A DNA stretch of 64,000 bases from Takakia lepidozioides (lineage: Eukaryota > Plantae > Bryophyta). The stretch covers positions 10,292,001 to 10,356,000 of the forward strand of contig CM060731.1 of the NCBI GenBank assembly GCA_030704615.1. The letters are read 5' to 3'. This document shows positions 17,936 to 58,240 of this stretch, one piece after another. The translations under genes were made by a program, and so were the position numbers. The notes below the pieces were generated by a model that worked only from the letters and a program-made list of their open reading frames with translations, had not been told where the DNA came from and did no database searches. Each line of letters begins with the position of its first letter. Position 1 is the first letter of the stretch.

Positions 17936-19229
17936 TCACCAGTACTCCCCACAAGAACAAACATCATTTTGGAAGTGGTGAAAGCGGTTGGCATCCCGTA
18001 CAACAATCTCTTGCTTAGCTATCTTTGAGATGAATTTGGTGGTGTGGCAGTCACCACACACCCAAAGGTTCTTGATGATCCCTAAAGGCATCCCAGAGGG
18101 TGTGTTGATAAGCCCAAAATCAATGGCCAGCTTCTCATTGTGGTGGCAAAGAGACGATTCTTTAAGCTCTTCCTCAACATCATGCAATGCAAAGCGCGGG
18201 CTTCATCCCTTCGCACACCATTTGCTCATAGGTCTCCAAAGCCTCCATCACGCGCCCTTGCTGTGCATATCCTGCAATCATCGCACTCCACGACAGCACA
18301 TCTCGTTCAGCCATACACGTTCGCCCTTCATACATGTCCACGAGGGTATTGTTCAGAATGACATTTGATACAATTGTTGCTCTTTGCCCTTTTCTAGAGT
18401 TGCCAAGCTTGCACACGCATTGCAAATGCACACAAACGTGTTGTGGTCGAGCATGTGAGTATGCACCTGCTTTCCAGCTTCCAGACCTTCCATTGATGCA
18501 CTTAAACAAGAGACAGACATACATATTTGAATATGCTGAAATGCCTTGCGATGTGGTTAGGCTTCACCCCTTCCCCCATCATTTGCTCATAGGTCTCCAA
18601 AGCCTCCATCTCGTGCCCCTGCTGTGCATACCCTGCAAGCATCATGTTCCATGACACCACATCTCGTTCAGCCAAAGTGTTGAAAACTCTCCTCACATCC
18701 TTAATGCACCCACATTTGGCAAACATGTCCATCAGGGCAGTGTTCAGGATGACATATGGTACAATTCCAACTTCGACAATGTCACTATGGACCTCTTTCC
18801 TCTTTTCCAGAGCTCCCAGGCTTGCACACGCATTGCAAACACAAACAAATGTGATGTGGTTGGGCTTCACCGCTTCGCACATCATTTGCTCGTATGTCTC
18901 CAAAACATTCCTACCACATCTATGCTTGGTAAATCCTTCCAACATAATATTCCACGTGATCAAAGATCATTGAGGCATTCTGTTGAACATTTGCAGGTGA
19001 ACATCCCTGATGCTCAGCACTTAACATACATATTTACAAGGGTGTTGAGTAGAAAAACATTTGTCGTGAATCCACTTTGGATAATGTGAGTGTGCACTTG
19101 CTTTCCAGCTTCGAGACCTTCCATCTTGATGCACTTAAGCAAGAGACATACATACATATCTTTTTGGTTTTTGGGGTGAATTGTCATGTTCCTTGTGAGG
19201 GCTGCGAATGACGCCACCTTAATGCCCAA
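17936..19229 (-). pseudogene. PLS-class PPR-DYW RNA-editing factor pseudogene
   Basis: PLS repeats (NTLVNMYVKC, RDVVSWNMMLAGYAQQG, KPNHITFVCV) and DYW domain ([33 protein letters not shown]), with several frameshifts and deletions. Confidence 0.9.
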
Positions 19230-25064: not shown

Positions 25065-27220
25065 GGTTATTTCCTAATTAAATACCTATGGTTCCAATTA
25101 TACTCTCTTAGGTTCTTTGAAATTTTGAGAACCATCGATTAAATGGGTATATATCCAGATCCATATCTAGCGGATACCAGGTCCCAAATCAAAGATCCTC
25201 TCGACACTCATGTCCCTATCAATAACCCCCCCAAGTTTGCGTGGGCTCCGAGGATTAGAGGATGATTCAAGAACATAGATACACATGGATATATCCAATA
25301 TGGACCCACAAATAGAGCCGGCTATCTAAAGTGTCCATGCAAGTATCCCCTAAGCCTTTGAATGCAATAAATTTTCTTCCTATTTTTGAAGGCTAATGCA
25401 GGCTGCATCTTACATTTGTAGCAAAGAATATGTACCTTCATAACCTCAAATGGCTTCAACTTGATATTGGTGGTGTTGAGGGTGTTGTTAATTGACATTG
25501 CTGGTATGCTCTTTCTTGACGGCTTGCCTCTTGCAATTAGCGTCAACACTTAGTGTTAAATAAACTATGGGGAATCATGCCCCATTTACAATTAGCTTAA
25601 TGGTTTTCAGTCTCAGTTCAGATTATAAGTACTAATTGAACATGAATGAAACGTGGAAACACATCTTAACAGTGTGAAACACATCCAACTTGAAAGATAA
25701 TTGGATTGAAAAGAAGCTAACAACTAGAGAGTGAACAATTAAGAATCTTCAGCAGTGAAGGAGTGAGAGGTGAGAGTGAGGCAATAAGAACGGGAGAAGA
25801 ACGTGGCCCGCGATACTGAAGGAGTGAGAGCAAGGGAGGGCTGAGGGTGGCCCGAGCAAAAAACAAAGTAGGGGTCAATTATAAATGAGGGTAAGACAGA
25901 GTATATTCTAGGCAAATCTCAAAAATAGGATCTTTCAATTTCCAAAACAATGATTTCATGGTGCGTCATGCTATAAAGAAAGAAATTTCCATTGAGCATG
26001 ACGATTTGCACAAAACAAAGACACTCTTCATAAATAGATGTGATACATTTGAGTCATCTTCTTCAGTTGCTCGTTTGTTGGCAAAATGTTGTCGTATGAT
26101 ACAATCTAATTTAAATGAATCATTTAACTATTATAATTTTGTTGGCTCTCTTCAATAGATTCAAGAGAGACTATGCATCATGTTGAAGTCAACAGAGAAA
26201 ATGTAATCAAAGGACCTTACACCGTATCAAGGCTCCGATTGCTTTCCTTCCAACAATATCATCATACAGTCAAACCAGGATAAATGTTACCTCTTTTTTT
26301 GTTATATCATCTTAAATGTTATGGTTTTCTTACTATGTAAAAATATACATTTTTTTTTTAATACACTGAGAATGACAAAGAGAGTGTTATTTGTTATTTG
26401 TTATTGAATACCTACTCTCCTCTTTGTTAAAACACACCTCTGTAATTGTTACATTCAATAAAATAATAAAATAAAATAATAATGGTACTAGTACTCAAAT
26501 TCAAATTCCCTATTGAAATGGGCATTTGAACTGTTGAAATGGCCAGGAGAACCCTAACCGCCACCTGTTAGGGTTGGGGGGCCTCTAGGGAACTCGAGAA
26601 CCTCTTGGTAGGGTACTGCGAATGTTTCAGGAACAGATAACAGTAGGTTAAGCACTATGTGATGACACCTTCAGTGCTACAGAGATACTATGAGCGTATG
26701 TTTGAAGAAGAGAGGAAATATCGGTGCTACCATTGTACGTGTCGGCAAATGTCTTGTTATGAGGTGGATCGAGAATCCAACAAGAAGCTGTATTTATAGA
26801 TTAAACGTGAGGTTCCACATTGGTCTAGATTTTGCTGTGAGAGCCAAAAGGTTGAAGTGCAAGTGCTTGAGTAGATTTAGTCTCAGATGAGGAAATATGG
26901 GATATGGTTGCAGCAAGTGAAGAAATCCATGAGGACGATGAAGAAGAATTAGTAGCCTCGGATGTACCTTCAGTCTCTTACTCTGAGGTCAAAAGGGCTA
27001 TAGAAACGGTTCATTTGTATCTTGCACAAAGTTCCTACTCTTGGAGCATAACAATTATCCAGGTTTGACTGTAGTACACACATTTTTAAACCACCTAAGT
27101 AGATCATATTGATGTGGTAGAACCATATGTCTATTTTATGACTTATATTTCTGTTTTCAAACATATTACCACTATAACCGTGGATTGTGCTCATGCAAGC
27201 TTTTTTCCTACTCATATTGT

Positions 27221-27400: not shown

Positions 27401-28039
27401 GCTCCACCCTGCGCCGATCTGAAGCTTGGGGAAGAGCTGCACACAAAGCCAACCGGGCTTTTCTCCCCTTAGTCCTCAGGTCACATGAAACATAATTCTC
27501 TTGACTTAGATAATATATTCTAAAAGATATCTCATGTCACATATCTATCATGTGGACACCTCTTGATGGAGAAAGCTAGTAAGCAGATTACTCACATGGG
27601 TTTTTTTTGTAGTTAAGAAAAAAACTAATCTTCACTCTCTTCCGACCTTGGACATGCTTTGTGCTCGGCAAGGTTACTTTGAAAGAGGTTATTTTCATTG
27701 TTGGGCAGATGTTTGATTTATGTCATATATATTCTCCAGTTCCGATTTTTTCGAGCTTTAGAAAATTAAGAACCTTCTGTTCCGAATATAACAAGATTTG
27801 TGTCAAGATATATCCTACGATCCCGGACACTAGTAAAAACCTCAAACATTTTATGGATCTCATCAAATTTTTGGCGATTTTTTCACAAATCTTGTCAGGG
27901 ATATTTGATTGGTTATTACTTAATTAAATACCTGTGTGTCCATACTCTTTCAGGAATTTTGAAATTTTGAGAAACGCCAATTAAATGGATATATATCCGG
28001 ATCCATATCTAGTGGATACCAGGTCCCAAATCAAAGATA

Positions 28040-28184
28040 TGTCGTGCGCATACATATCGCTACACAACTACATCGCTGTCCAAAACCACACAACACATGT
28101 GCACACCACACACTAGTATACCACTAGTCTACCACTAGTCCAGCCACTAGTCCAACCACTAGGCTACAACTAGTCAGTCACTAG
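28040..28184. repeat. Repeat Y, outer copy (145 bp; element 3' terminus)
   Basis: Identical by eye to 28512-28656; rich in CCACTAG motifs. Confidence 0.95.
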
Positions 28185-28509
28185 ATAAAGAAGAAGAATA
28201 CAAGCACAAGCTCATGCGAGCTCACAAAGCTGAAGCATAAACTCATGCATATATAACCTCATCACTCAAATACAAGTCAAGCCAAGTGCACCCCACGCCA
28301 TGGGGAATCCACACTACGGCGCCATAGCTAGGCGCGGTGAGGCTCAACTCGAGAAAGATGAGCCTCCCGCGCTTGCCGTGAAGATAACCACTCCAGGGCC
28401 TAAATCTGCCTTGACCCCTGGATTGACACTTGGGCCAATCCCAAATGTCAATATGTAAAAGCTAGCTATTTCCTAGCTAGTTTCACACTAGTGGTAAAAT
28501 AACTTGACA
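28184..28509. repeat. Repeat X, inner copy (326 bp)
   Basis: Matches 39958-40284 except one spot (tgcaccccacg vs tgcccccccacg). Confidence 0.95.
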
Positions 28510-28511
28510 GC

Positions 28512-28656
28512 TGTCGTGCGCATACATATCGCTACACAACTACATCGCTGTCCAAAACCACACAACACATGTGCACACCACACACTAGTATACCACTAGT
28601 CTACCACTAGTCCAGCCACTAGTCCAACCACTAGGCTACAACTAGTCAGTCACTAG
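28512..28656. repeat. Repeat Y, inner copy (145 bp)
   Basis: Identical by eye to 28040-28184; joined to inner X through TTGACA-GC-TGTCG. Confidence 0.95.
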
Positions 28657-28959
28657 GCTGCCACTAGGCTGCCCACTATGGCAGTCACTAGTCCACACAA
28701 TCGCCCCCCTAGCTGGTGCTTAGGTCCCTCTAAGTCCAGGTAGCCACAAGATGTGATAGTGACCATAGCCTCACTAAGTCCTCCACCACTATCCCCACTA
28801 CACTCAAACTCGATAGATCAAGAGGCCGGGTGCAAGAGTTGCCCCATCGTTAGTCGCCGTCTTGCAACCTGTGAACTTGAGCTTGGGATCTCATGTATTG
28901 ACTCCTATGAGCTTGGCCTCCCATGTCTTGTTAGCTGCCTCCAGTCATGTCCACTGCCA

Positions 28960-29105
28960 CTATCCCAAGCAGTGTGAACACAACCAATCTCCGTCAGGAA
29001 CCTTCTCAAGAGGTGGTGTCAAGCATCCCATATGCCAACCCCTTGAGCACCGATCACACACCAGCATGGTGGCTGCCCCTTTGGCAGACCCACAGAGCAT
29101 GCACC
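28960..29105 (-). CDS. PHD finger at the integrase C-terminus
   Basis: CMLC..MLVCDRCSRGWHMGCLTPPLEKVPDGDWLCSHC, a canonical C4HC3 pattern. Confidence 0.93.
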
Positions 29106-29384
29106 TCAAACCTGCAGGTACCACTGCCAAGTTTGGGTCAACTCTGCCATCAACATTGGGAAGGTGACATGGCGCACAATTACGCACATGGTCTTTCCAA
29201 GTCATGCCATCCCGACCCTCTAAGATCAGGACCCCTGAGGGCAACACCTCTCGAACCCTCAGAATAGCACGCCCTGCAGTAACATCCAGAGTCGTAGGAG
29301 CAGTCTGCTGCAAATAAACATAGTCACCAGGGCTAAACCTCCGAACCCCAAGACGATATCCTCCACCACGTATAGTGACATACC

Positions 29385-31926
29385 TCAACGTATCACGGTG
29401 CTGTGCAATGGCAAGGTTCTCAAAAGCCATTGGCATGACTTTCTTGAACAACTCTGCACGCTGATCACATGCACGTACCCATACGTCCGGATCGTCAAGG
29501 TTAAGGACTTGAGCAGTGTCCCTCGAATGGCTGCAGGCAAATCCGGCTCTCGGCCAAAGAGAAGGAAATATGGTGAGAAGGAGGCAAGTGATGCTTGTTT
29601 GCTGAACCTGTAGCCCATGGCTAACCAAGGAACCTGAAGATCCCAATCTCCTAGGTGTCCCTTCTGCAAGCCATACTTGCGCAAACCCCTCTTCACCGTC
29701 TGAACAACTCTCTCTGCTAAGCCATCGGCCTCAGGATGATCCCGAGAAGTGGTGCGGTGGTCTATCAAGGCTTTATCACACAAAGCCTGAAACTCCCCCA
29801 AGAACTCTCTCCCTTGGTCCGTGAGTACCTCAGCTGGAGCACCAAATCGGCTAAGTACACGATCCAAGAATGCATACGCAGCCCCCTCACTAGCCTTGTC
29901 AGGCAATGGAACCAACTCAATCCACTTGGAGAAGTGCTCCACCATCACCAACACATATCTGTGGTGGCGCATAGTCAGTGGCAACGGTCCTGCGAAGTCA
30001 AGACTCCACCTGTAGCCCAATCCCATGATAGGTAAAGGATGCAACTGTGGTGTAGGGGCGTTGAATAAAGCACGCACCCTGTCACACACCATGCACATAG
30101 CCACAAACTGTTGCACCTCTGTATGCATACCACGCCACCAATACTGCCCCTGCAGTAAACTGTGAGTGCGTCGCACTCCAAAATGCCCCAACTCCTCATG
30201 GGCATGCCGCACTAACCGTGCACGCTGTGTGGGGTGAGGCACAATCCTCACCCGACCATCCTCCCACACTCGAAGTATGTGTATCCCCTCCCACTTGAAC
30301 CTCTTGGCTCGTTGCAGGATCCGATCCCTCTCCCTGGCAGTCACAATGGCTGTCGTGTCTCCCGTGCGGAGGTAGTCCAACACAGCCGAATCCTCATGTA
30401 TATCTCTGGCACCACCTAGCTCATCACTAGCCTCAGGGTCCTCAGACACTCCGTCTACAGTCATCCATGTTGTAGGTCCAATCTGACCTCCCGATGCCAA
30501 GATACACAAAAATGCAGATGCGTGCCATCCCGGCACCATCTCCTCGTCCGTCTCACCATGCCACCGAGCTCCAGTGTCATCCTGCTGGCTCATGCATGGA
30601 TTGCGACTCAATCCATCCGCATCCCGATTGACCAAACCCGGTCGATGCACAACCTGAAAGTCATACTCCTGGAGTATAAGTGCCCACCGTGCAAGCTTCC
30701 CCGTAAGCTTGTCTGACTCCATCAACCACTTGAGTGGCTGGTGATCCGTGACAAGGGTGAAAAGATTGCCGTATAGATAGCACCTGAAGTGTGCCACGGC
30801 CCACACTGCAGCTAAGCACTCTCCCTCATATGAGCTGTACTTAGCCTCTGCAGCGTTGTTCGAGCGGCTAGCGTAAGCCACTACGAACTCTCTTCCCTCA
30901 TCATCCACCTGTGTGAGCACCGCTCCAAGCCCCAGCATGCTCCAATCCGTATGCAGCTGAAAGGGACGCCCCCTGATAGGTCGTCTCAAGATAGGCGCCG
31001 AGGTCAACCTCGCCTTGAGCTCTTGAAAAGCTCGTTCCTGCTCATCTTCCCACTGCCACTCCTGGTCGACCTTGGTCAGCTTGGTTAGAGCCTTTGCAAT
31101 GGTACTAAATCCCTTGACAAACCGTCTATAATAGTTTGTCAACCCCATGAAAGCTCGAACTCGGCTCACATCCGTGGGGCGTGGAATTTGTGCAATGGCC
31201 TCTACCTTAGTCTGCTGTACCCCCAATCCTCCAGGATATATCATGTACTCAATCTGGTTGTGGAAAAACTTGCACTTCCCCGGATGCAACTTCAATCCGT
31301 GCGCTCTCAAGCGCTCCAATACCACCTGAAGGTGTCTCTCATGCTCCTCCATCGTAACACTAAAGATGATGATGTCATCTATGTAGCACCGAGCAAAGTC
31401 CACCCCTGCTAGAATCCTATCCATGACTCTCTGAAACTCTGCAGGAGCATTCTTAAGCCCAAATGGTAAGAACCGCCACTGATATAGGCAATCCTTGCCG
31501 TGCTCATTGATCCCCCAGAATGCCGTCTTCTGCTTGTCCGCCTCCTTGATTGGCAACTGGTGATATCCGGATCGTAAATCCAAAGTGCTAAAGGCCTTAG
31601 CATGCCCGATGGCATCAAAGATCTCCTCTGGTGTTGGCATGGCATACTTATCGGACTTGGTCTGACGATTTACAGGCCGATAATCACCGCACATACGTCT
31701 CTCCGTCCAATTGCCATAGACATCCTTCTTGGCTGGCATCACTGTGGCTGAAGCATACTCTCCACCAGAGAGCTCCACCAAACCTGCCTCCCAGAGATCT
31801 CTGAGTCCTCATCTGAATCAAAGACCTCTCCATGTCACTGTATCTATAGGGTCTCCGAAAGATTGGCGTGTCAGTGGCCAACTCAATACGGATCTCTTGA
31901 CCCTTCAGTGCTCCCAAGTCCTTCAA
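29385..31926 (-). CDS. pol: reverse transcriptase, RNase H, H2C2 + DDE integrase (lesioned)
   Basis: RMCGDYRPVN, LDLRSGYHQ, PFGLKNAP, YIDD; HTDWS..YASR..EGECLA..TDHQPL; HEELGH..CMVC, WSLDFAGP, TDQGREF, DGLAERVV. Confidence 0.95.
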
Positions 31927-32384
31927 ACTGAAGGCAAAGCAATTCCTGTAAGCCCTCAGGAACCGCCGTATACGTCGTCTCTCTCCTCCGGTGACAATGG
32001 GTCCAATGTCAGGCTCCCAATTGTCCTCCGTAACTACAACCTTAAGTCCAGTGGGCTTAGAGGTAGAGGACGCGTCCCGTGGTTGCTATGCTGCAACCTC
32101 TTGAGCAGTACTCCCTGCCTGCTCAGTCAATGACAAGACCTCATCCTGCCCCATCATCTTATCATTGAGGACCTCCTCAACCCGAGAAGAATCCCCAACC
32201 TCATCTATCACAGCCGCCTTGGCTGCCAACTCCCTCTGAACCTCGAGCACCTCCCACGTGTGCCATGGATGCATGCACCCCGTGGTCCTCACATGCTCGC
32301 CCCCACTCACTGCCTGTACCGTCTCGGTAGGCAGAGAGACCATTGAGGGAAGTGTATTCCGCACTCTGCGTTGCTCAGCCAGAG

Positions 32385-33335
32385 CCAAGCTGATAATCCA
32401 GGTCAAGCAATTGAGATCCATTGCTTGCCCCAACACTTGACGACGTGATGCCTCAGAAAGAGACGACACCGCCATGGTACCAGTGGTAAAACCCATTGCC
32501 CGCTCACGCTCGTCAGCATTAGGCTCCACTAACTGCTGCAACTGAGCATCCCACAGGAGGCCAGGTCCACTATCCCGGAAAGCATGCGATCCTGGGAAGC
32601 TGAGCAGTGTAGGTAATGCTGCCCGTGGTTGACCCACCTTATTGACCACTGCCAAAGGCGAACGGTCATCGTGTCTCACACGCTGAGACTGACTCCCTGT
32701 GTCCAGAATGTTATCCACTGTGAGATGTGCTGGCCGCTGCACCCCATCAAATGCACGCTTGAGCAGTGCGGGTGGCATCAAGTTAGTCCACCATAGCCGT
32801 GGACGATGAGCCCGTGACCCCACTGTAGCTGCATCTAGCAACACTGCTGACCCAAGCCACGACCGGACTTGATGCACACTGGCCATCACCCTGGCCCGAG
32901 AATCGCCCATCAGTGGCACATTCTCCAAGATGTATACTGGAGATACAGCTTGATGAAGCTGCAAGTGGCGCAAAATCCGCACCATCTCCCGAAACAGACC
33001 CGACCTCGAGTCTCGCAATCCATTGCCATGCCCGGCTAATGAATGCCCTTGGCAGGGCCAACTTGCCACTACCAATCAATGGAGCCAACCCGCTCCAAAT
33101 CCTGCGCCCCCAGCAACAAAATGTCTGCTGGCAAGGCCTGTTGATATCCACGAATTGCAGACACCGACAACAACTCAGGGTACCGCTGCACCAACTGAGT
33201 AACATGGCGAAGTGAAACGCGTCGTGCAGTCTCATCCCTCTCCACATACAGGTAACGCCGAACTCGTACACCTGCCTGTAACACAGCAGCCAATCCGGTG
33301 CTGATCCCGCCAAACAAGTCCAGAAGATAAATGCC
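32385..33335 (-). CDS. DNMT3/DRM-like C5 cytosine DNA methyltransferase domain inside pol (1-bp frameshift at about 33075)
   Basis: Motif I DLFGGISTG, II VERD, III ADI, IV WPCQG, SRSGLF, VI ILENV, VIII AHRPRLWWTN, IX ERERAMGF, X RRQVLGQAM, in unpermuted order. Confidence 0.93.
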
Positions 33336-33739
33336 TTCATCCGGATACTGCCACACAATAGGTGTGATGTCCAATGGAGACAACTGAGGTGGTCCTGGTG
33401 CAATCCCCGCACTCTCCTCCTCTCTTGACGGTACAAAAGCCTCCACCCAGGCTTGTTGCACCCGTCGATCAGCATCCCGCTGCAAATCCTTGCTCGTGCC
33501 CCACAATGGAGTCTGAGCAACCATGGTAGGCAACTCCGCCATACCATACATGTTATCCTGCTCTCCCGGAGGTGGTACATCCTCTGAATGAGCATTGCCC
33601 TCAAGCAACTCTCTAGGCCAACTCACTGCCGCTGTGAATGCTGCTAGTGTCGGCATCTTGCCTCGCTGGGCAACCGCAACTCCTCCTATGAACGTCACAG
33701 GGAGCTGCACACGCCGGCCCTCCCCTGACTGCCATGCAG

Positions 33740-34110
33740 GCCTATAGGAAGCTGACTCCTCCCAAAAATCCAGGGTGAAGCCCATGGGGTACAATACTGC
33801 CCCACCAACCAGGACATCGTATGAGACTGCGTCTGTCACAATGGCCTTGGCTCGCATCACTGAGCCATCTGTAGGGTGATCCGGCCGTAGTCTGATAGCC
33901 AACTCACGCCGTGTCATGCCCCGAGTCTGCTCCGATCCTCCCAGAGACGTCTGTATCTGGAAAGGACAAGGCTCCATATCCGCCTCCGTGAGGCCCAAGC
34001 CTGCAATAGCAGCTCTGCCCAGCATCAATGGCTGAGCTCCCGAGTCCAACAAGACCCGCAGTGGCCGGTACCTCTTGCCTGCCGGTCCACTCAAACAGAA
34101 AATGCCATCC
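33740..34110 (-). CDS. Retroviral-type aspartic protease
   Basis: VLLDSGA...YDVLVGG in ORF 33069-34205, in frame with DNMT motifs I-III. Confidence 0.88.
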
Positions 34111-34815
34111 TGGTTGTCTAACATGACAACTCCAGGTGTCACCATGGCGCGCTCAATGGCTGGCCTAGCTGGCAGCTCCATCAACTGGTAGCTGCAGCTT
34201 GCCATGGCGCCGCCGTGGCAGTCTTGACCCTCAAATCCGAGGATCCCTCCGGCACTACACCTCCTACTATCTCCGCAGAAGATGAAGTAACCTCCCCACT
34301 CTCACAGAGTGTAGCTGCCAGCCTGAACACCTCAGCTGGTCTTACCCCCGGCGTCGCAATCATGGTAGCCGAGAACAATGGAGCCTGGCACACAGATGTG
34401 GCCGCTCCTAGCAGCACACTAGCTGCCGTAGCCTTGGCAACACTAGGTAGTGGTGCTACCCGTGTAGCTCTTCCCAATGGCATAGTAACCTCCGCCTCGG
34501 TAACAGTCGGGCGAGAACTAGGTGCCATGGATGGCGTCGACACTGTCTCCGCCAATGTGAATGACTGAGGAAGCCTAGCCTGACGGCTTGCCTCCCCACG
34601 CTGTGGATCCAACTCCACCTCTGCACCTCGTGGCTCAGGAACTCGTGATGCTCCTCGAGTCACGGCTGCAGCAGACTCCACCTGCACTAGTGGTAGTGCT
34701 GCTCCACACATGAATCCCATGCCTCCCATATCTCCTCCCTCAGGAGCAGGAGGTGGACCATCCGGCCTTAGAGCCGGTACCACCTGAGCTGTAGCCATGG
34801 CAGCGAGCCTCTGCT

Positions 34816-36235
34816 CTAGCTGCTGAAGCCGGTTGGCCATGCCTTGGTCAACACCCTGACCTCCGCGTCCTTGGCCACGTTGAGCTTGCCCTTGGCCTGC
34901 ACCTTGTGGCTGGCCACCTCGTCCTCTCTGGGCTGCTCCCCTCGCCCCCGGCCACCATTGTTCCCTTGGAACTGGCCTGGGCGCAACTCAGGATGCAAAC
35001 TATAACACTGGGCCTCTCCATGCCCGTGCTTGCCACAATGCCCACACTGTAACTGTGCAGGCTGTGCATGTGCCGGCCCTTGCCTCCCTTGGACAATCCT
35101 TCTTGACATGGGGTCCTCCACATGTCCAGCACACCACATCCGCCCGTTGTTGGCCAGCAAATGAAGGGAGAGACCCCTGCATCTGAGGTCCTCTCTGCCC
35201 TTCCCTGAGCTTCACCTGAGCCCCCTTGTTGCCTTGAGCACGTTGAGGTAGTGGTTGGCTAGGAGCACCACTACCCCGTGGTGTCTCCTTAGCAAATCCC
35301 ACCATGACCACTCGTTCCTCCACCATGTTGAGCTCTATCCGCTCTGCCAGCAAAAACACATTTGCTAAGGTGGGTTGGGCCGCTTGTAGGAGAGTTGCAT
35401 CCCACACCCTTCTCCTCAGCTCCTTGTCCAATATCCCATACCAGAATTGGACTGCCTGAGCTTCCGTAACCCCTTGGGTTACATTTATCAAGCGCCTCAT
35501 GCGAGTGAAAGCCTCCCTCAAGCTCTCGGTCGGCTTCCGTTGGAACTCTTGCAAGCTCCGCAACTTCTCTGTCCTCACCCCTTGGTAGTTCCCTCTCAAC
35601 TCTTCAAAGAACTCCACAACAGGGTTGAAGGCAGGCACGGGTGCTAGTGCTGGTGCGGTGGTGGCTTGGGTGGACGTCGTAGCTACTGTACCACCAGTCC
35701 CACTGCTGCTTGCTGAAGCTGCCGGTGCAGCCCTCGTAGCTCTAGTGCCCCTAGTGATGGAGACATAGTCGGGTGACCAGTACATCCTCCACTCCTCGAT
35801 CTCAACCTCATGCCCCCGCCTGAACTCATGGTAATCATCCATAGGCGGCCCCTCAAGGTGCTGAAACAGCCCTTTCCATGCCATGAAAGGCGTAAATAGT
35901 TGTGGATTGCGCATTTGCTGCAAATCACACCAACTATCAAACTCTTGGATAAAATCATCCAACTCGATGGTGCCCACCGCCCCAGAGTACCTTCGTGGCC
36001 CCTTGGTAGCTCCATACATCTCCTCCATTGTGTCCCACAACAATGGCAAAGAAGCGACTTGCACCGCCGGTATGAGCCCTCCTGATTCACAATCCGAATC
36101 AGAACCTTCCGTGGAAGACACAGGAGGTGAAGGTGGCCTAAACCGCACACCTCGTCTCGTGTACCCACTAGTATCGCTAGTGCTCGAACCGGCACTGTCC
36201 CCAGCAACTAGTGGCACCTCCGTGTTGACACTCAA
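34816..36235 (-). CDS. gag with two zinc knuckles (frameshifted)
   Basis: RYSG..LDDFIQEFD, QRKPTESLREAFTRM, CWTCGGPHVKKDC and CGHCGKHGHGEAQC. Confidence 0.85.
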
Positions 36236-36499
36236 CCGGTCATGAACATGTCCCTAACCCCCTCTCCACAAGGTAACCGGGTAGAGAACCTGTTGCGGCT
36301 TATGGTTTGGAATACTAAGTTCCTAACATAGCCTACACCTGAACTTGCATGACCATGGGAATATCATGAAGATACTCCTCAAACCGCCCTCCACGAGCTT
36401 CAAAATTCGGCCTTCCAGACCACATGCCAGTCCTTAGTCCACCAGTGCCTCCACGAGTCAGCACAGGCCGTCCACAGGTCAACACGGGCCACCACAGAC

Positions 36500-38425
36500 C
36501 AGCACAGGCCCACACAGCTCACTGGTCACAGCCGTCACAGTCCCACAGGCCACTGGGCACAGCCTGTCGCAGCCCCTCACAACCTGTCACAGCCTCAAAG
36601 GCCTCAGGCACGGCCTGTCACAGCCCCTCACAGCCCCTCACAGCCCGTCACAGCCCCAAAGGCTATGGGCACGGCCTGTCACAGCCCCTCACAGCCCGTC
36701 ACAGCCCCAAAGGCCTCAGGCACGGCCTGTCACAGCCCCTCACAGCCCGTCACAGCCCCAAAGGCCATGGGCACGGCCTGTCACAGCCCCTCACAGCCCG
36801 TCACAGCCTCACAGGGCACAGGGCACAGCCTCTCACAGCCCATCACAGCCCATCACAGCCCGTCACAGCCTCAAAGGCCTCAGGCACGGCCTGTCACAGC
36901 CCCTCACAGCCCCTCACAGCCTCAAAGGCCTCAGGCACGGCCTGTCACAGCCCCTCACAGCCCGTCACAGCCCCAAAGGCCATGGGCACGGCCTGTCACA
37001 GCCCCTCACAGCCCGTCACAACCCCAAAGGCCATGGGCACGGCCTGTCACAACCCCTCACAGCCCGTCACAGCCCCAAAGGCCTCAGGCACGGCCTGTCA
37101 CAGCCCCTCACAGCTCGTCACAGCCTCAAAGGCCTCAGGCACGGCCTGTCACAGCCCCGCACAGCCCGTCACAGCCCCAAAGGCCACTGGGCACAGCCTG
37201 TCACAGCCTGACACAGCCCGTCACAGCCCCACAGGGCACAGGGCACAGCCTGTCACAGCCCATCACAGCCTCAAAGGCCTCAGGCACGGCCTGTCACAGC
37301 CCCTCACAGCCCGTCACAGCCCCAAAGGCCATGGGCACGGCCTGTCACAGCCCCTCACAGCCCGTCACAGCCCCAAAGGCCATGGGCACGGCCTATCACA
37401 GCCCCTCACAGCCCGTCACAGCCTCAAAGGCCTCAGGCACGGCCTGTCACAGCCCCTCACAGCCCGTCACAGCCCCAAAGGCCTCAGGCACGGCCTGTCA
37501 CAGCCCCTCACAGCCCCAAAGGCCATGTGCACGGCCTGTCACAGCCCCTCACAGCCCGTCACAGCCCCAAAGGCCTCAGGCACGGCCTGTCACAGCCCCT
37601 CACAGCCCCAAAGGCCATGTGCACGGCCTGTCACAGCCCCTCACAGCCCGTCACAGCCCCAAAGGCCTCAGGCACGGCCTGTCACAGCCCCTCACAGTCC
37701 GTCACAGCCCCAAAGGCCTCAGGCACGGCCTGTCACAGCCCCTCACAGCCCGTCACAGCCTCAAAGGCCTCAGGCACGGCCTGTCACAGCCCCTCACAGC
37801 CCGTCACAGCCTCAAAGGCCTCAGGCACGGCCTGTCACAGCCCCTCACAGCCCATCACAGCCCCAAAGGCCATGGGCACAGCCTGTCACAGCCCGTCACA
37901 GCCCCGAAGGCCATGGGCACAGCCTGTCACAGCCCGTCACAGCCCCACAGGCCTCAGGGCACAGCCTGTCACAGCCCCGCACAGCCCGTCACAGCCCTAA
38001 AGGCCACTGGGCACAGCCTGTCACAGCCTGACACAGCCCGTCACAGCCCCACAGGGCACAGGGCACAGCCTGTCACAGCCCATCACAGCCTCAAAGGCCT
38101 CAGGCACGGCCTGTCACAGCCTGTCACAGCCCATCACAGCCCCAAAGGCCATGGGCACAGCCTGTCACAGCCCGTCACAGCCCCACAGGCCTCAGGCACG
38201 GCCTGTCACAGCCCATCACAGCCCCAAAGGCCATGGGCACAGCCCGTCACAGCCCCACAGGCCTCAGGGCACAGCCTGTCACAGCCCCGCACAGCCCGTC
38301 ACAGCCCCAAAGGCCACTGGGCACAGCCTGTCACAGCCTGACACAGCCCGTCACAGCCCCACAGGGCACAGGGCACAGCCTGTCACAGCCCATCACAGCT
38401 TGCCATAGCCTGTCACAGCCCCTCA
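36500..38425. repeat. About 1.9-kb tandem array in the retroelement leader; about 51-bp unit built from 10-bp TCACAGCC(C) subunits
   Basis: Consensus ggcacggcctgtcacagcccctcacagcccgtcacagccccaaaggcc(tca/atg) with higher-order blocks. Confidence 0.95.
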
Positions 38426-39957
38426 CACATGGCCGCTCTGGCAGTTTAGCCATTTCTCCAAGGGGTTTAGCCACGCCAAGCTAGGGTTTGTGTCTCTTGG
38501 ACTCTAGGCTTCTTTCCACCGAGCTATGGTGGCTGTGAGGAAACCAGCAAGGTATCCTTGCTCTTTCGGCTCCCACACACCACCATAGTAGCCCTAAGCC
38601 ATGAGGTGGTTGCCACAAACCAAGCCTTCTTTCTCACTTAGCCTCCCCAAACACGCCACTAAACTCAATGGCAAACAACCAAGCCCTGCTGGTTCCCAGC
38701 CCTTGTGAGCACTCATTCAAGCACTCCCCTCATTGGCCATAGCATCTGTCTTAGAGCCTATTCCAGCCCTCTACACCTGTTGCTTCAAGAGTTGCGCTCC
38801 CTTCAAGCTTGAAGTTGAAACCCCAACTCACATAGGCCCTACAAGTGCTGTTCTTTCACTCCAAGTGGAAACCAGCCCTAGACCTTCCGTTCTAGCTCTC
38901 TAAGCTTGAAAACAAAGCCTCAATGGGCTGAAGGCATGCTCCACACATGCCCCACTCTCACCATAAGAGAATCAGCTCCTTTGCTTCATTTCTTGCACCA
39001 CAAACCTGATAATACAAGCTTCAGCAGGCTGAAAGCATGCTCTACATGCCCTACAGGGAAACCAGCCCCTTCCTTCCTTTCTTGCACTCCCACACCTAAA
39101 AGTGCAAGCCTTCACCAGGCTAATAGCATGCTCCACACATACATTGCCCTCACATAAGGGAAGTCAGCCCTTCCCTCTTCCTTGCTTGCCCTCCAAGCTT
39201 GAAAATGGAAGCTTCAATGAGCTGAATACATGCTCACACATGCAACCTCTTCACACAAGAGATATCAGCCCCCTATCTTGGCTCCTTGGCTCCTTGATGC
39301 TCTCTAAGACAAGACTAAGCACTCCATAGCCTTTGCCAAGCTCCTGAAACCTAAGGCTTACATTTCCAGCCACAAGACACTTCTCTTGTGGTGCAAGAAC
39401 TCTTCTTCCAAGCTCTGAAACCCTAGGTGCACATTCCATGGCCTTGCCGCACCTCTTAGCTCCTGTTCCAGCCCTGCTCTTGCCATGACAAGAGCCCTCT
39501 CAATGCTGAAGCTCGAGATTGAAACCCAATCTCACCATACTCCACAAAGTGCACTGATTTGCCCAAGCAAAATCAGCCCTTTCGCTTGGTCTTGCAATCC
39601 TTCACACAAATGAAAGCTCGCATTCCCAAGCCAGTTCTCAGCTTTGCCACAAAGCCACTATAACCTGCTCTTGACTGGTCCTCTCCCAATCGTGCTTGCT
39701 CATGCATGTACACAATCTGGAACCATCAAGGTGCTCTGGAATTACCTGCAGCATGGTGCTTTCATCTCTGAAGCTGAAAGATCAAATGCCAAAGGTCTAC
39801 CACCTCGTAACCCACATCGCCTCTGCTTCTAACAACTAAGAGCTCCACGGTGCTCCTTGCATAACAACTTGGTTTCTCTCATTCTCAAGCAAAAACCACA
39901 AGTGCTACAACTAACTCGTATCCGGCACTCACAGATACGAGCTGATCTTTCTCGAGT

Positions 39958-40284
39958 GATAAAGAAGAAGAATACAAGCACAAGCTCATGCGAGCTCACA
40001 AAGCTGAAGCATAAACTCATGCATATATAACCTCATCACTCAAATACAAGTCAAGCCAAGTGCCCCCCCACGCCATGGGGAATCCACACTACGGCGCCAT
40101 AGCTAGGCGCGGTGAGGCTCAACTCGAGAAAGATGAGCCTCCCGCGCTTGCCGTGAAGATAACCACTCCAGGGCCTAAATCTGCCTTGACCCCTGGATTG
40201 ACACTTGGGCCAATCCCAAATGTCAATATGTAAAAGCTAGCTATTTCCTAGCTAGTTTCACACTAGTGGTAAAATAACTTGACA
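39958..40284. repeat. Repeat X, outer copy (327 bp; element 5' terminus, LTR-like)
   Basis: Sense strand starts TGTCAAG; near-identical to 28184-28509. Confidence 0.95.
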
Positions 40285-43200
40285 GATACTCTTGACACTC
40301 CTGTCCATATCATTAAGGGGCATGATTGTGAGCGGTCGCTCTTGGGTTGTTTCCATTTAAGAAAAGCTAATCTCCATGATTATGGAATATGTATATAGTA
40401 ATTTGTTCCGTAACATGCATTTTGATAATATTTGGCCACTATTCTTGTGACTATCATTGCATATGAGCGAAGACCAAAATATTTACTAAATTGTGGTATT
40501 TCCCTTCAGCAAACAAGCTACAAACAAGCTGCTAGTCGTGTATGGCTCATCCTTCTTTATGGTGGATTCTACTTTCATCCATATAATTCATCCATTTATT
40601 TCTCATAAGTTGTTCAATAACAAAAAAATACATATGGGAGTGTTACTTGGGGAAGGCACACCATGGATGTAGTTGTCCGCGATGAAGATGATGGACACAT
40701 GGGGAAGGCACAACAAGGGCTTTGCAAAATTTCTACGCTGATGTGTAGTCTCCTCTTTAGAAAAGGTAAGCAATTAAACAGAGAAATTTAAGGCAATGCA
40801 CATAGATACATGACATGGATATATGCAATATTGACCCCACAAATAGAGCTGGCTATCTGAAGTATCCATGCAAGTATTCCCTAAGCTTTTAAATGCAAGT
40901 TGCATGTTGCATTTGTAGTAAAGAATATGTACCTTTACGTCAAACATAACCTCAAATGGCTTCAACTTGATGTTGGTGGTGTTGAGGGTGTTGTCAATTG
41001 ACATTGTTGTATGTTTTCCAACTTGATCCTTCTTAACGGCTTGCCTACTTGCAATTAGCATGTCATGGTTTTAATCATGGTTAACTAGAATTACCTACTT
41101 CTAGTTAATTATGACATTTTGGATATTTATATTTGTATATGTGTGTTGGGATTTCATTTGGTTTCATATGCCAAGTGAGGTGACAACCAGTGTTGGTCTG
41201 GTATCTCGGTTTCGCCGGGTATCAACCCGGGCATCAACCCAGGTATCTCCTAACCTAACCTACCGTTCTATGTTCCGTAAACATTCGTTGTACCCTACTA
41301 GAAAGTTCTCGAGTTCCCTGGCGGCCCCCCAAACCCTAACAGGCGACGGTAAGGGTTCTCCTGTCCCCGCCATAGCTCGACTCGTCGCTGCAAATATGTT
41401 CGGGTATCATGCTGATATGCACATATAGACTATAGACATTATGATGCAGGGTTTCATGTATAATTGTATGGGGTTAGTATCCTATGAGATGAGCAGGTTT
41501 CCCTTGTGCTCATGCCACCCAATCTCTATGATGTATGAGGGCCAGTGTTTTTTTTCTTGGCGAAAAATCGCCAAATGGCGACCTCAAAAAATTAAAATGG
41601 AATATTCTTTCGTAAATTCCCAATTTTTTCATGGATGAAATCGCCAAATTTCTACAAAGATAAAATAATAATGGATGAATTTGCCAAATATGTATGATAT
41701 AAATGGATGAAAGTACACAAGAGGATGATTCTATCCAAATTTCAATGGATGAACAGAATATATAGCTATTTATTGTAAAATTGAATAGCCATTCGTGCTA
41801 TTTTTCAAATTCAAGAAAAAAAATCACTGATGAGGGCTATCAAAATGGCCATTTCAATATTGAATTTGAATTTGAATACTAGTAATCCACCTGTTGGAAG
41901 TCATTACAGTGTTCACCTTCCCACCGGAAGGCAGTAGCCCTATGGGGTCAAGTGACACCATAAGTTATGTTTGCTTCGGCAACGCGTCCACCTTTGAATA
42001 CTAGTAGCATTTTTATTTTTTTATTTAAAAAAAAACCATATCCGAGTTCATATTTCCAGGTTATTGACATTCAGATACCATTGCTCATCTCTGGATTGAT
42101 TTTTTTTTCTTAAACCACCTATGCATACCAAATTCATACTTGAAAAAATTAGGGGCTGCATTATTGGAAAACCTACCTGCCTTAAAAACAAATAGCATTG
42201 CATACCAGGACCCTTCTAGTATTTCCAATTCAAGATACCATACCAATACTAGTGACAACTCACTTCGGACATGAGGATACATTTTTCCCCTTATGAGGGT
42301 TGATGAGACACATTTTTTTATAGTGATAAGACATGAGAATTGAGAAAAGTGGAAGACAATGAAAACACTCAAAACATGAAAGCAATCACATTAAGAGGAA
42401 ACCTAGTCCCTCCAAGTGAAAATCCACTCTATCACATAAATTATGTTAAGTTAAGGGCACCTTTGCTAAAGGAATCCACCCTACAAAGCCCTCAACATAC
42501 TCCCTCTCAATACCTAGAGCTATATGGAGGTGAGAGAGGCATGGAAACGATGGTTAGGTGCGCAACAAGCGTCAACAGTTAGTGTGAAATAAAATATGGC
42601 GAATCATGCCCCATTTACAATTAACTTATGGTTTTCAGCTCAGTTTAGATTATAAGTACTAATTGAACATGAATAAAACGTGGAAACATATCTTAACAGT
42701 GTGAAACACATCCAAGTTTAAAGATAATTGGATTGAAAAGAAGCTAACAACTAGAGAGTGAACGATGAAGAATATTCAATGACCTGAAATAGTGGAGGAG
42801 TGAGAGTGAGAGTGAGAGTGAGGTGATAAGAGCGAGAGAAGAATGTGGCCCGTGGTATTGAAGGAGTGAGAGCAAGTGAGGGTTGAGGGTGGCCTGAGCA
42901 AAAAACATAGTGACGCTATGGTGTGAGCCTGCTCATGTTAACCTAGTTTAGTGGTATGAGTTATAATCTGGTTTAGTGGTCTTATGTTAGAGGCCCTATT
43001 GACCTACGTAACGATACCTAGAAATTCCGCCGGCGAAACCCCGATACCTTGATTTATTTCACTGGCAATACCCAAATACCTTGATTTATTTCTTTGGCAA
43101 AACCCGTTTGCCTCATTATATGAAATTGTTCAATTATTGTTTGGTATTTGTGTGTTTTGGATGGTGTTGGTTATTGTACTCTTTTTTTCCCTAATGTGTT

Positions 43201-46340: not shown

Positions 46341-47361
46341 TGCCTCCACTTCCAAACTCCACAATTCCAAGCTTCTGCTATCACATGAAATGCGGGGAAA
46401 AGATCTTCCGCACCTCCTGACCAGCACGAGAAAATTCAAATGACACACATACATTTGCAACAAACACCACAGACTGGGGAGTCTAGGAAAGGATCGGAAA
46501 CAGTTCGTAACAAAACGGTCGAGTCTACACACAAGATTGATCGTCCCAACCCGGCAAAACACAGTTTGGTTTAGCCAATTCTCTTAAGGAATTTAAATTA
46601 GACTTTAGATGTGGAAAATGTGGCCACATTTCTCACTTAGAAAAACAATCCAATGGCGAAACGAGTTTGGCCAGCTGAGCTCCATGTCAACCCTAATGCT
46701 GTCGTGCCCTTCTGTCTCTTGCCCTGCGCACGTTGCGTCCCGTGTCACTGATTCCTTGCTGGTGGGGAATGGTGTTAATGCTTGATCATGGCTTTCTTTT
46801 CTTTCTTTTGGAACCCTGTAAAGCTTTATTTACAAACTGACATGAGGTAACTGTACAAAGGATGGAAAGTTCCCATAGCAAGGGAAGATTGAACATAAGG
46901 AATGAAAAAGAAAGCGTAGCAAGCCAATCAAACCAAATGATCATCCCATCCAACTGCCTAAATCACATCAGACAAAGAAATGGGTGTGACATCGGGAAGA
47001 GCAGAAAGATGCGACGGAGCCATGCCAGCTACAGTAGTAGCCCGATGCAAAATGGACATGGCCTGTGCCCTCTGTAGAGCTACGAAACCGTTGTCTATAG
47101 AGTAGGTTTTGAACGGAAGCCAGAATAGGATCTACTATCTGCGAAGACTATCTGTAAATGTGCAAGTTGGAATAAGAAAGTGGCCTGGCTGAAAGCAAAT
47201 TGTGGACAGGGACTGAAAAATGGCATGGTCATTTCAAGAGCTGTGCCTCCGTCGTGGGATTTCGTGGTTTGCTTTTGAAACCTTGGCTTTTCTGTTCGTA
47301 GACTTCTTCCTAGTTTGCTGATAGTTTTACTGAAGTGGCGGGGGAAGCCTATGGCGTGATC

Positions 47362-48390
47362 ATGGATTCAAGATGGAGTGGCTTGCCTTTGGATTTGCAA
47401 GAACGAGTGCTTGCAAGGATACCAATTGCTTGCATATATCGATTACGCTCAGTCTGTAAGATCTGGAACACAATATTGTCTTCTTTCAATGTTCTTCGCT
47501 GCTGTGTTGAACGCTCCCTTGAAAGACCAACTTTGTTGGTTCTAAACCCAGCCCTATTTGCAATCACATGTTTTGATCCTCTCACAAGCAAACTGCATGC
47601 TATTGGGATAAGATCGCTTCCAAAAATCTTGGAGGTGGAGGCAACAGCTGCGGGGCTATGGTGTTGCAAAGCTTATGTGGAAGAGGTTACGAGGTGTATT
47701 GTGTGTAATCCTGCAACCAAAGCTTGGGTGCTACTCCCTTGCACTGGTTTGAAAGTTGTGAAGACAGTTATGGTGGTTGATCGAAGCATCCAAGCATTCA
47801 AAGTAGTCAAAACATTACAATTACCTGCAGAGACGGACACCAGTCAATTGACTGTAGAGGTGTATGACTCGAAAAGCAAGCGCTGGACCATGGTTGGCAC
47901 TATGCCTCCACGCACAATATTTGGTTCAATAGTTGTATGCCAGGGTCATATGTACTCGTTGGGGGTTGGATTGCCATTACATGCTGTAGCATTTCACTTA
48001 ACGCTTGGTACCTGGAACCGTATTTCATTACCATCGGACCGAGGAGTTCTTCAGTTGATCGAGCGGGATGATCAGTTGTTTTTTCTCGGCTACGATGAAG
48101 ACATGTTTACAATTTTTGTATGGAGGCTGGAGCAAGTGACGATGGAGTGGATGGTGTATACGACGATGCCAATATTACCAGGGGACTTTCTGAGCAACTC
48201 GTATATGAATCTTGTGGCTGTCATCAGTGGCAACTTCCTGTACTTGGCCTCTCCTAGCATAAGAGACAAGTTGGTTGCTTATGATTTTGTCCAGGGATTG
48301 TGGGGATATTTGCCAATGTCTCCTCTACTTCATATTTGGACTAAGTCATATGTTTGGGGATATGATCCTTGCTTGGATGGTCCGTGGTGA
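47362..48390 (+). CDS. F-box protein with kelch/FBA-like beta-propeller C-terminus
   Basis: WSGLPLDLQERVLARIP..RLRSVCKIWN F-box; IVCNPATKAWVLLP, VEVYDSKSKRW; uninterrupted ORF. Confidence 0.9.
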   Translation: MDSRWSGLPLDLQERVLARIPIACIYRLRSVCKIWNTILSSFNVLRCCVERSLERPTLLVLNPALFAITCFDPLTSKLHAIGIRSLPKILEVEATAAGLWCCKAYVEEVTRCIVCNPATKAWVLLPCTGLKVVKTVMVVDRSIQAFKVVKTLQLPAETDTSQLTVEVYDSKSKRWTMVGTMPPRTIFGSIVVCQGHMYSLGVGLPLHAVAFHLTLGTWNRISLPSDRGVLQLIERDDQLFFLGYDEDMFTIFVWRLEQVTMEWMVYTTMPILPGDFLSNSYMNLVAVISGNFLYLASPSIRDKLVAYDFVQGLWGYLPMSPLLHIWTKSYVWGYDPCLDGPW

Positions 48391-56049: not shown

Positions 56050-58240
56050 CATACTCCTGACACCTCTGTTCACCAACATTGAAAATCAGGAGGCTCAGCC
56101 TAAAGCCCTGCTCCTCTTGGGGTATACAACACATGGATGCTTGTGTGGAGGGATTTTTGCAGGAAATCTGGAAAGCCTGAACAATTTCCTGAACCAATTT
56201 TATATACCAACGTAAGTCTCAGTACTGGATTAACCCCTCACAAATGTAGGTCTATCGACTCTTCTGCTGCCCAACCATGGATGTGGGGACTATGGCCACA
56301 ACGCTATGGCAAACAACGTCTCGTGAGTACTCAGGACCAGCAAGAACATAGTCTCTCCCCGCGCCTGTGTTCACCAACTTTCAACCACTTTCACAAACTT
56401 TGTCGAGGCTGAGCCTAAAGCCCTGGCCATGTTGGGGTCTGATTGTTGGGCAGGTCATACTCAGTAGATTCATGCATGTGTGAAGGACTTTCTAGAGGAA
56501 TGAAGGAAAGCCTGAACAATGTCGAACAAAGTCTCTCCCTGCAGCTCTGTTCACCAACTTTCAAGAGGTTTAAGAAACTGCGATCCAGGCCGAGTCTAAA
56601 ACCCTGGCCATGTGGGGGTATGATTGCTGGGCAGGTCACCCTCAGCATGTTGATGCATGTGTGAAGGACTTTCTAGAGGAATGAAGCAAAGTTTCAACAA
56701 TCTCCTCAACCAATTTTTGTATACCAACATAAGTCCCACTACTGGACTGAACCCCTCACGAAGGTAGGTCTATCGCCTCTTCTTCTGCCCAAGAATGGAT
56801 GCGGGGTCTATGGCCACAACGCTGTGGCAAAGAATGTGTCATGAGTACTCAGGACCATGTCGAGCATAGCTGCTCCCTGCACCTCTGTTCACCAACTTTC
56901 AAGAGGTTTAAGAAACTGCGATCTAGGCTGAGTCTAAAACCCTGGCCATGTGGGGGTATGATTGCTGGGCAGGTCACCCTCAGCAGGTTGATGCATGTGT
57001 GAAGGACTTTCTAGAGGAATGAAGCAAAGGTTCAATAATCTCCTGAACCAATTTTGTATACCAACATAAGTCCCACTACTGGACTGAACCCCGCACGAAG
57101 GTAGGTCTATCGCCTCTTCTTCTACCCAAGAATGGATGCGAGAATGGATGGAGCAACCCAAATTTCCAAAAAGGGGGGTGGCAAATGATGTGGTGTCTGT
57201 GTGGGTGTGAAGCAGTGGGAGCTGTGGGGGCAGCGATACAGCATTGGGAGGGGATCATGGGCTTGCCCCAGGCAAGAGGGCCATGCAACCAATTTAGCTA
57301 CCACATGACCACTGGTTGAAACAGGTAGTTAGTAGAGAGAGAGAGTGAGAAGGAGAGTAGAGATACATGAGCTAGAGGTGTTGTGGAACCTGGGTGGGTG
57401 GTTGAATGTGTGGGCAGCAGCGTCCAATGATGTTGTAAGCTGCAGGGAGAGGGGGCTGTAGTACCAGTAGTTAGTGGCGTAGAAGCTAGGGAACAGGGAG
57501 GGCAGACTGCAGATTGAAGATGAGCAAGAGGGTCCTCTATATGAGAGGGTAGTATGGGTTTATGGGTGTCAAAGAAGACCTTAATGTACTGGGTAACATA
57601 GCAGCTCTGAGGCATGCATGTAGTACAGACAATAGGGTGTGTTAAGCTGGTGTAAGGCAAGAGGTAGGGAGTGTGGAGGGGGTAAATTACCATGAATTTG
57701 GTACGTGTGTTGATGCAGGTGCTAGTGTAGGGCAGATCTGGTGGTGTTAACAGTGGTGGGATAGCATACAGTCTCACATCATCTAGCGTAGTATGGCCGG
57801 TCCGTTGGAAGGGGGCTGGGCAAAACTTGGTCAGCTGCAGGTCACCCCCAGCAGGTTCATGCATGTATGAAGGCCTTTCTAGAGGAATGAGAAAGCTGCA
57901 ACAATCTCCTGAACCAATTTTGTATACCAACATAAGTCCCACAACTGGACTGAACCCCTCACAAAGGTAGGTCTATCGCCTCTTCTTCTGCCCAAGAATG
58001 GATGCGGGGTCTATGGCCACAACGCTATGGCAAACAACGTCTCAGAGTATTCAGTACCATATCAAACATAGTCTCTCCCTGCACCTTTGTTCACCAACTT
58101 TCACCCACTTTCACAAGCTTTCTGGAGGCCGAGCCTAAAGCCCTGGCCATGTTGGGGTCTGGTTGCCGGGCGGGTCACACTCAGCAGATTCATGCATGTG
58201 TGAAGGACTTTCTAGAGGAATGAAGGAAAACCTGAACCAA
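56050..58240. repeat. Diverged repeats of about 180-340 bp
   Basis: Recurrent tgttcaccaactttc, ccctggccatg, ggactttctagaggaatgaag and ccaacataagtcccac..ggactgaacccc blocks, interrupted by unrelated sequence at about 57140-57840. Confidence 0.85.

Follow-up and report, generated by a model that had tools for sequence, protein, structure and literature searches.

The window, by which we mean the whole 64,000-nucleotide stretch of Takakia lepidozioides DNA analysed here, carries a 12.2-kb Ty3/Gypsy element on the minus strand (28040-40284, between 4-bp target duplications) with a DNMT3-like methyltransferase domain between its protease and its reverse transcriptase. Our overall explanation, to which we assign a probability of about 0.6, is that this element represents a bryophyte family of the KnitGypsy-Dnmt3 kind in which the enzyme would end Gag-PR just before a leaky stop, be packed at Gag-like amounts and likely methylate the element's own cDNA. 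Across the family, the domain order is gag-PR-DNMT-stop-RT-RH-IN-PHD in a single frame, and the repeats have a split layout (A1, body, B1, A2, B2; that is, A-body-B-A-B). In the window copy, the features are as follows.

40285-40288 (-): left target-site duplication TATC, the same 4-mer as at 28036-28039
39957-40284 (-): repeat A1, with a TGTC start and a CA end; 324 of 326 columns identical to A2
40122-40134 (-): predicted self-primer inside A1, a 13-nt perfect complement of 39945-39957
39945-39957 (-): predicted primer-binding site, not tRNA-like (no TGG)
36526-38427 (-): tandem array in the 5' leader, with units of 10, 41 and 51 nt (the 51-nt period has a TRF score of 1887)
34184-36253 (-): gag with zinc-knuckle region (PF03732 E 0.0017, below cut-off; one CCHC knuckle)
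33680-34140 (-): aspartic protease, LLDSGA at 34035-34052 (PF13650 E 0.017, below cut-off)
32385-33340 (-): C5 methyltransferase domain of DNMT3-like type, interrupted near 33076 by a one-base frameshift
32080-32088 (-): conserved stop in readthrough-type context TAG CAA CCA, the TAG itself at 32086-32088
30600-32085 (-): pre-RT segment, reverse transcriptase (YIDD at 31371-31385) and RNase H (PF00078 E 2.8e-31, PF17917 E 8.4e-36)
29110-30250 (-): integrase, H2C2 plus D-D(34)-E (PF17921, PF00665)
28963-29103 (-): PHD finger ending the integrase (PF00628 E 8.3e-11)
28701-28712 (-): polypurine tract (PPT)
28512-28700 (-): repeat B1, from the PPT to CACGACA, its last 145 nt identical to B2
28506-28515 (no strand): internal palindrome GACA-GC-TGTC at the B1/A2 join, predicted integrase att site
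28185-28509 (-): repeat A2
28040-28184 (-): repeat B2, lacking ~44 nt of the B1 start, with a CACGACA end
28036-28039 (-): right target-site duplication TATC

The element is a Gypsy element by its enzymes and an atypical one by its ends. The PR-RT-RH-IN order is present, the second ORF of an intact relative (L033) has Ty3 Gag-Pol as its best PDB match (E 4e-98), and the D(34)E spacing is found in 12 of the 13 integrases examined. The window gag is 60% identical to the N-terminus of a Marchantia protein model (P0003), and the protease of L033 matches PF13650 at E 0.0002. Two full direct LTRs around the body were not found, the repeats being split instead. Pfam detected no chromodomain in the window, L033 or L050; a PHD finger was found instead, and in L033 it shares one ORF with the integrase. 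No tyrosine recombinase family was detected in the 35 ORFs scanned (out of 37 of at least 75 aa in the window, the other two lying in the tandem array), and a DDE integrase is present.

Within the window domain, methyltransferase motifs I to X occur in unpermuted order, with motif I at 33303-33323, the RxR of motif VIII within 32782-32814, ERERAMGF (motif IX) at 32488-32511 and LGQAMD (motif X) at 32416-32433. PCQ (33049-33057) and ENV (32917-32925) are intact on the minus strand, as the first-pass annotation had claimed, and the HMM check that it proposed matched the C-half ORF (32089-33075) to PF00145 at E 4.2e-9 and 36.7 bits, above the curated cut-off of 22. ORF positions likewise confirm its reading that the N-half continues the protease frame (ORF 33069-34301) and that the C-half shares the frame of the pre-RT segment beyond the single TAG at 32086-32088; between the halves lies the frameshift near 33076, just before motif IV. 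Its placement of the domain between protease and reverse transcriptase also stands, but not as part of a separate pol ORF, as gag, protease and methyltransferase form one ORF in intact relatives. Further frameshifts in the window copy lie near 34939 and 34185 (gag), 31801 (RT region) and 29523 (integrase), making five in all and leaving this copy, as assembled, unable to make its proteins. The indel at 34939 is present in other copies. A1 and A2 are nearly identical (one substitution, and one indel in a C run) despite the five ORF frameshifts; this would be explained by a recent move of a defective copy in trans or by assembly errors behind some of the frameshifts.

By profile and by modelled fold, the domain is DNMT3-like, and DRM, DNMT2 and bacterial enzymes are more distant from it. 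A family profile ranked DNMT3A (E 5e-24) ahead of a DRM-type entry (2.5e-13), M.HhaI (5e-8) and DNMT2 (2e-6); its alignment to DNMT3A left out the target-recognition region. An AlphaFold model of the intact domain of a relative, L002 (pLDDT 91.3), had DNMT3A and DNMT3B as its best structural matches (TM 0.73; Z 28.6, rmsd 2.7, 274 aligned), while the best bacterial fold match reached Z 25.1. Both results uphold the DNMT3-like identity first proposed from the motifs. Across 23 diverse relatives, at 31-44% identity, the catalytic C, E and RxR do not vary. A search of the ESM Atlas yielded nothing but generic phage C5 methylase clusters, from which we conclude nothing about origin.

We also considered whether the window domain is a fragment of a host gene, captured by one copy and decaying neutrally, as the five frameshifts and the mostly non-synonymous private changes of this copy might suggest. 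However, this architecture is found again in the fetched loci and in another three bryophyte genera, the reverse transcriptase and methyltransferase trees agree at their main splits, and sequence comparisons, run across copies as the first-pass annotation had advised, indicate that the domain is under purifying selection across the family. Between the window and Sphagnum-type copies, dN is 0.19-0.25 and dS ranges from 1.7 to saturated; closer pairs in other clades give dN/dS of ~0.13 (L033/L034) and 0.09 (L050/L044 and L050/L049), and recent decayed Sphagnum-type pairs give 0.5-0.9. Among the host-copy variants (40 of 62 rows listed), shared changes are mostly synonymous (10 synonymous and 6 non-synonymous), in contrast to window-private changes (2 and 9; Fisher p 0.047). 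The annotation had held that its reading would fall if the domain occurred only in this copy and evolved neutrally; we find instead many copies, in several species, under purifying selection. Because of this recurrence and the selection signal, we regard the captured fragment as refuted and give it next to no probability.

Relatives of the domain extend well beyond Takakia. Among 53 domain homologues, 21 carry a species name (17 Marchantia, 2 Calypogeia and 2 Sphagnum, up to 73% identical), and no vascular plant is among those 21. A profile search returned 577 clusters at E 1e-30 or better, the named ones including Scenedesmus and Closterium, and Closterium accounts for 8 of the 28 rows in one homologue listing. 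Of 600 stretches read in a metagenome scan, 330 were confirmed as relatives, and 80 loci were kept; their main group is Sphagnum-type, with L002 100% identical to an S. fallax model over 141 residues. A search of viral contigs found no relatives. In the host run X1, 17,665 contigs fall on the 1.3-kb domain region, and the host must therefore contain many differing copies; the contig depth, which sums to ~1 million over the element where single flank contigs have 44-69, is to be read only as "many copies" and not as a copy number. Partial element contigs also occur in two runs guessed to be RNA, from which we draw nothing about expression.

FastTree analyses of the reverse transcriptase (47 rows) and the methyltransferase (43 rows) recover the same main groups: one with the domain after RNase H, including Scenedesmus, and one with the domain before the reverse transcriptase, in which Closterium elements group with those of bryophytes. 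Nested in the latter is the clade that bears the stop (support 0.997 and 0.979). These trees exclude P0208 and P0299 (partial RT) and hold no host DNMT3, DRM or bacterial sequences; no named Klebsormidium protein is among the homologue matches. In the majority of distant relatives, the domain lies between RNase H and integrase, and RT-RH-MT-IN-PHD is the commonest multi-domain layout among the proteins examined (34 of 154, including Scenedesmus P0220 and many of P0206-P0354). In the sister clade (most of L043-L080), motif IV reads WEC rather than WPC and motif VI ENT rather than ENV. One Closterium protein (P0421) has its methyltransferase match annotated together with the Copia RT family PF07727; separately, PMC12344493 says "Copia" where PMC5890265 says Gypsy. 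Inverted A or B repeats lie upstream of the methyltransferase in four loci (L013:5921-6035, L016:5931-6045, L062:4688-4976 and L077:8572-8732) and represent either neighbouring copies on the opposite strand or rearranged insertions.

A reading of the TAG after the domain as damage did not hold up: it is a conserved feature of the family. The linker is covered by 69 of the 80 loci, 40 of them close relatives and 29 from the sister clade (L024 was dropped as a spurious pattern match). An in-frame stop with a CAR-YY-type context is present in 37 of the 40 close relatives (29 CAA CCC, five exact CARYYA and three single-base variants), the three misses being two deletions and one TAC, and in none of the 29 sister-clade loci, where methyltransferase and reverse transcriptase share an ORF. 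After a stop triplet, the background frequency is 0.67% for CARYY and 0.17% for CARYYA. The exact CARYYA occurs in the window, L030, L033, L034, L038 and L068. Between six subfamily exemplars, the 30-nt flanks of the stop are only 8-22/30 alike, and within the hexamer only the degenerate positions vary. No stop variant was seen among host copies in the 40 of 62 rows listed. In the intact L033, a 1369-codon gag-PR-methyltransferase ORF, TAG CAG TTA and a 1047-codon RT-RH-IN-PHD ORF abut in the same frame. A lesion was rejected on the strength of this conservation in relatives and host copies and of the abutting ORFs in L033. An apparent conserved stop before the domain in the sister clade was likewise discarded, as it is a sporadic TGG-to-TAG change.

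As gag, protease and methyltransferase form one ORF that ends at the conserved stop in intact relatives, the domain is the C-terminus of Gag-PR. Marchantia P0003 is an uninterrupted Gag-PR-methyltransferase model, and four Marchantia and Calypogeia models, compared as protein models only, end 96-100 residues past motif X, against 115 in the window. Stop-codon readthrough with CARYYA occurs in TMV and SIRE1, and plant-virus work puts the yield of readthrough at a few percent. The hexamer has been described as important for readthrough (PMC3441728), and judging from its conservation here, RT-RH-IN-PHD is likely made in this way: most ribosomes would stop after the domain, and a minority would read through into RT-RH-IN-PHD. 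The enzyme would then be made at the level of Gag, and reverse transcriptase and integrase at a few percent of it. Such Gag-level expression is not needed to keep the domain, since the sister clade lacks the stop and most of the distant relatives carry the domain between RNase H and integrase.

The same architecture could also be expressed by reinitiation, or from a spliced or internally started RNA. Ogre elements provide a precedent for splicing between gag-pro and the reverse transcriptase. In the Sphagnum-type family, where the stop context CAA CCC is one base off CARYYA, an in-frame ATG two codons after the stop would allow reinitiation, and L034 has one after four codons. In the window, L033, L038 and L068, however, the first in-frame ATG is 47-116 codons past the stop; moreover, the ORFs abut in frame across a single codon, and the hexamer varies at its degenerate positions alone while its flanks diverge. 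We therefore consider expression by these other routes improbable and retain readthrough.

How the element primes its own reverse transcription is suggested by its 5' end. No tRNA-type primer site was found after A1. Instead, 39945-39957 is perfectly complementary over 13 nt to 40122-40134 inside A1, and the two are paired in the minimum free energy fold (z -5.86). Such a helix, with at least 11 paired nt, is present in 12 of 24 elements (some of these rows being the same insertion seen twice), versus at most 8 nt in 192 control windows, and it is kept in three families with differing sequences. In the other 12 elements, the pairing is below 11 nt, and two of the 12 positives pair elsewhere in A. 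A second stable hairpin (39913-39943, minus strand) directly follows the primer-binding site. Self-priming has been described for Tf1 and Tcn1 elements (PMC6317226), and we predict that a helix of the Tf1 type replaces the tRNA primer site here. With high probability, the RNA would start inside A1 and self-prime with the site after A1, and plus-strand synthesis from the PPT would complete a linear cDNA with B, att and A at both ends.

The inserted form does not look like this product. Ordinary LTR reverse transcription would give B+A at both cDNA ends, yet the inserted element starts with A and ends with B, so that joining of the ends followed by a cut at the upstream palindrome is the simplest reading. 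A GACA-NN-TGTC palindrome is present at B1/A2 in 17 of the 25 elements with a 3' end, seven of them reading exactly GACAGCTGTC; the remaining eight comprise seven without A2 and one that is rearranged (L044 was dropped from this count as a spurious pattern match). The outer ends of the element are the two halves of this internal palindrome. Target duplications of 4 bp are exact in 7 of 10 insertions, two others have one mismatch and the last has a degenerate end, and B was found upstream of A1 in none of the 23 loci with an intact A1. Foamy virus integrase is known to cleave palindromic junctions of two-LTR circles (PMC1180852). From the split palindrome and the 4-bp duplications, we think it somewhat probable that integration proceeds from a two-LTR circle: the cDNA ends would be joined, creating the A2|B2 seam, and the DDE integrase would cut the upstream internal palindrome and generate the 4-bp duplication, yielding A-body-B-A-B without a recombinase.

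Two points count against the circle. It offers no account of why only the upstream palindrome would be cut and the downstream one spared, and 11 of 15 loci have a precise A2|B2 seam. In its favour, the seam is altered in the other four loci and in the window, where ~44 nt have been lost; host contigs show several seam forms. If no circle were formed, the integrase might cut the upstream palindrome on linear cDNA and hold both pieces while host repair sealed the A2|B2 seam at about the moment of insertion; the product would be the same, and the sole use of the upstream site could be explained. This route, however, needs a three-ended complex, and the foamy virus precedent is for cleavage of a circle junction, making it, in our judgement, unlikely. 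We continue to favour the two-LTR circle. We do not accept forms with an A-body-B structure as proof of double cutting, because L059 and L079 have common flanks but not the same form; recombination or assembly collapse explains such forms.

What the enzyme does is a separate question. The enzyme could plausibly be packaged with the cDNA, as the first-pass annotation had supposed, and a fusion to Gag would make this more plausible still. The methyltransferase might then mark the cDNA before integration, either shielding it from host recognition or presetting its chromatin, a step on which we are evenly divided; the PHD finger would help to choose chromatin targets. Conceivably, the conserved domain acts elsewhere, on the element RNA or the host DNA at the target site, or serves the particle as a DNA-binding component without catalysis. 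In yeast, no methylation by the Klebsormidium enzyme was seen, a result that the authors call inconclusive, and they leave the role of the retrotransposon methyltransferase open (PMC5890265). In line with such other roles, we saw no extra CG depletion in the element (CG o/e 0.48-0.64, versus 0.47-0.51 in the flanks), and the target-recognition region is the part of DNMT3A that the profile leaves unaligned. On the other hand, the catalytic residues are invariant even at 31-44% identity, the fold is closer to DNMT3 than to DNMT2, and SymbioDIRS-Dnmt3 enzymes methylate CG de novo (PMC5890265). We consider another substrate possible but the less probable option, and keep the element's cDNA as the favoured one.

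Combining these strands, we tentatively propose, as a reading that we think rather doubtful as a whole, that a green-lineage branch of Ty3/Gypsy cuts a fixed internal palindrome on a two-LTR circle instead of processing linear ends, and that one bryophyte clade within it moved DNMT3 to the end of Gag-PR before a leaky stop. Enzyme present at capsid levels would mark the cDNA and could possibly block cutting of the second palindrome, which contains CHG sites.

Elsewhere in the window, a glycerol kinase exon (9276-10259, minus strand) is 81% identical to Sphagnum fallax and groups with mosses (99/95), as sister to Sphagnum and Ceratodon, in a 28-row tree without hornworts. From this one gene, an early-diverging moss such as Takakia is a likely host. 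There are also an F-box/kelch-type ORF (47314-48390, plus strand), a PPR fragment (18505-18966, minus strand) and local repeat clusters at 52876-53387 and 56127-58237, with units of ~145 and 180-340 nt. Three repeat pairs, 86-94% alike and 17 kb apart, flank the element (25533-25869 and 42562-42911), possibly reflecting an older element or a duplication.

Why a transposon keeps an enzyme of the silencing class has been an open question since 2018, in part owing to the inactivity of the algal enzyme in yeast and to hosts that were hard to manipulate. Marchantia polymorpha, a genetic model, carries the same kind of element, with the intact P0003 model, and the question of retention is therefore testable in a plant. 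The conserved stop predicts the amount and the destination of the enzyme, and the structure of the ends suggests, in concrete terms, a mechanism by which a Gypsy element could have DIRS-like repeats. Software that looks for two complete LTRs may overlook such elements or draw them wrongly, and fragments of them are annotated as host methyltransferase genes.

The kind of element described here is already published, as KnitGypsy-Dnmt3, and the conserved stop, the self-priming helix and the ends made of palindrome halves are features for which we found no report. In the open-access literature (a scope outside which lie subscription papers, Repbase and the 2018 figures), we found no prior account that places the family in bryophytes or describes the conserved stop or the internal att model; the portions consulted of PMC12344493, PMC11244446, PMC6453930, PMC9985172, PMC9406493 and PMC6317226 contain no bryophyte report. 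The first-pass annotation had pointed to the DNMT retrotransposons of de Mendoza et al. 2018, and the description of KnitGypsy-Dnmt3 from Klebsormidium nitens (PMC5890265) justifies that link: it shares the Gypsy domains, a DNMT3-related domain that keeps its key residues and is under purifying selection, and the DIRS-like A-body-B-A-B repeats. Set side by side from description rather than sequence, the two differ in host, an alga in one case and a land plant in the other, and in that the algal enzyme shares its ORF with the reverse transcriptase, whereas in the moss element the frame is the same with a conserved stop between them. The sections of that account consulted give no priming or integration mechanism. 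SymbioDIRS-Dnmt3 of Symbiodinium (PMC5890265) also combines a DNMT3 domain in a retrotransposon with the same repeat layout, and its enzymes are the only members with demonstrated CG methylation; it uses a tyrosine recombinase, in contrast to the DDE integrase, 4-bp duplications and absence of a recombinase ORF in the moss element.

Other parallels concern single features. Among the Tcn1/Tf1-Sushi chromoviruses are Ty3/Gypsy elements of mosses that are also predicted to self-prime (PMC6317226, PMC2864245), but these end in a chromodomain, whereas the element described here has a PHD finger, a methyltransferase and split repeats. Known cases of CARYYA readthrough (PMC3441728) likewise have a stop and CAR-YYA between two in-frame ORFs, but the moss stop falls after protease and methyltransferase rather than right after gag. 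Finally, the foamy virus integrase cuts a palindromic CA..TG junction in a circle (PMC1180852), as proposed here; its palindrome is the end-to-end junction itself, while that of the moss element is a fixed internal site of the repeats, apart from the ends produced by reverse transcription.
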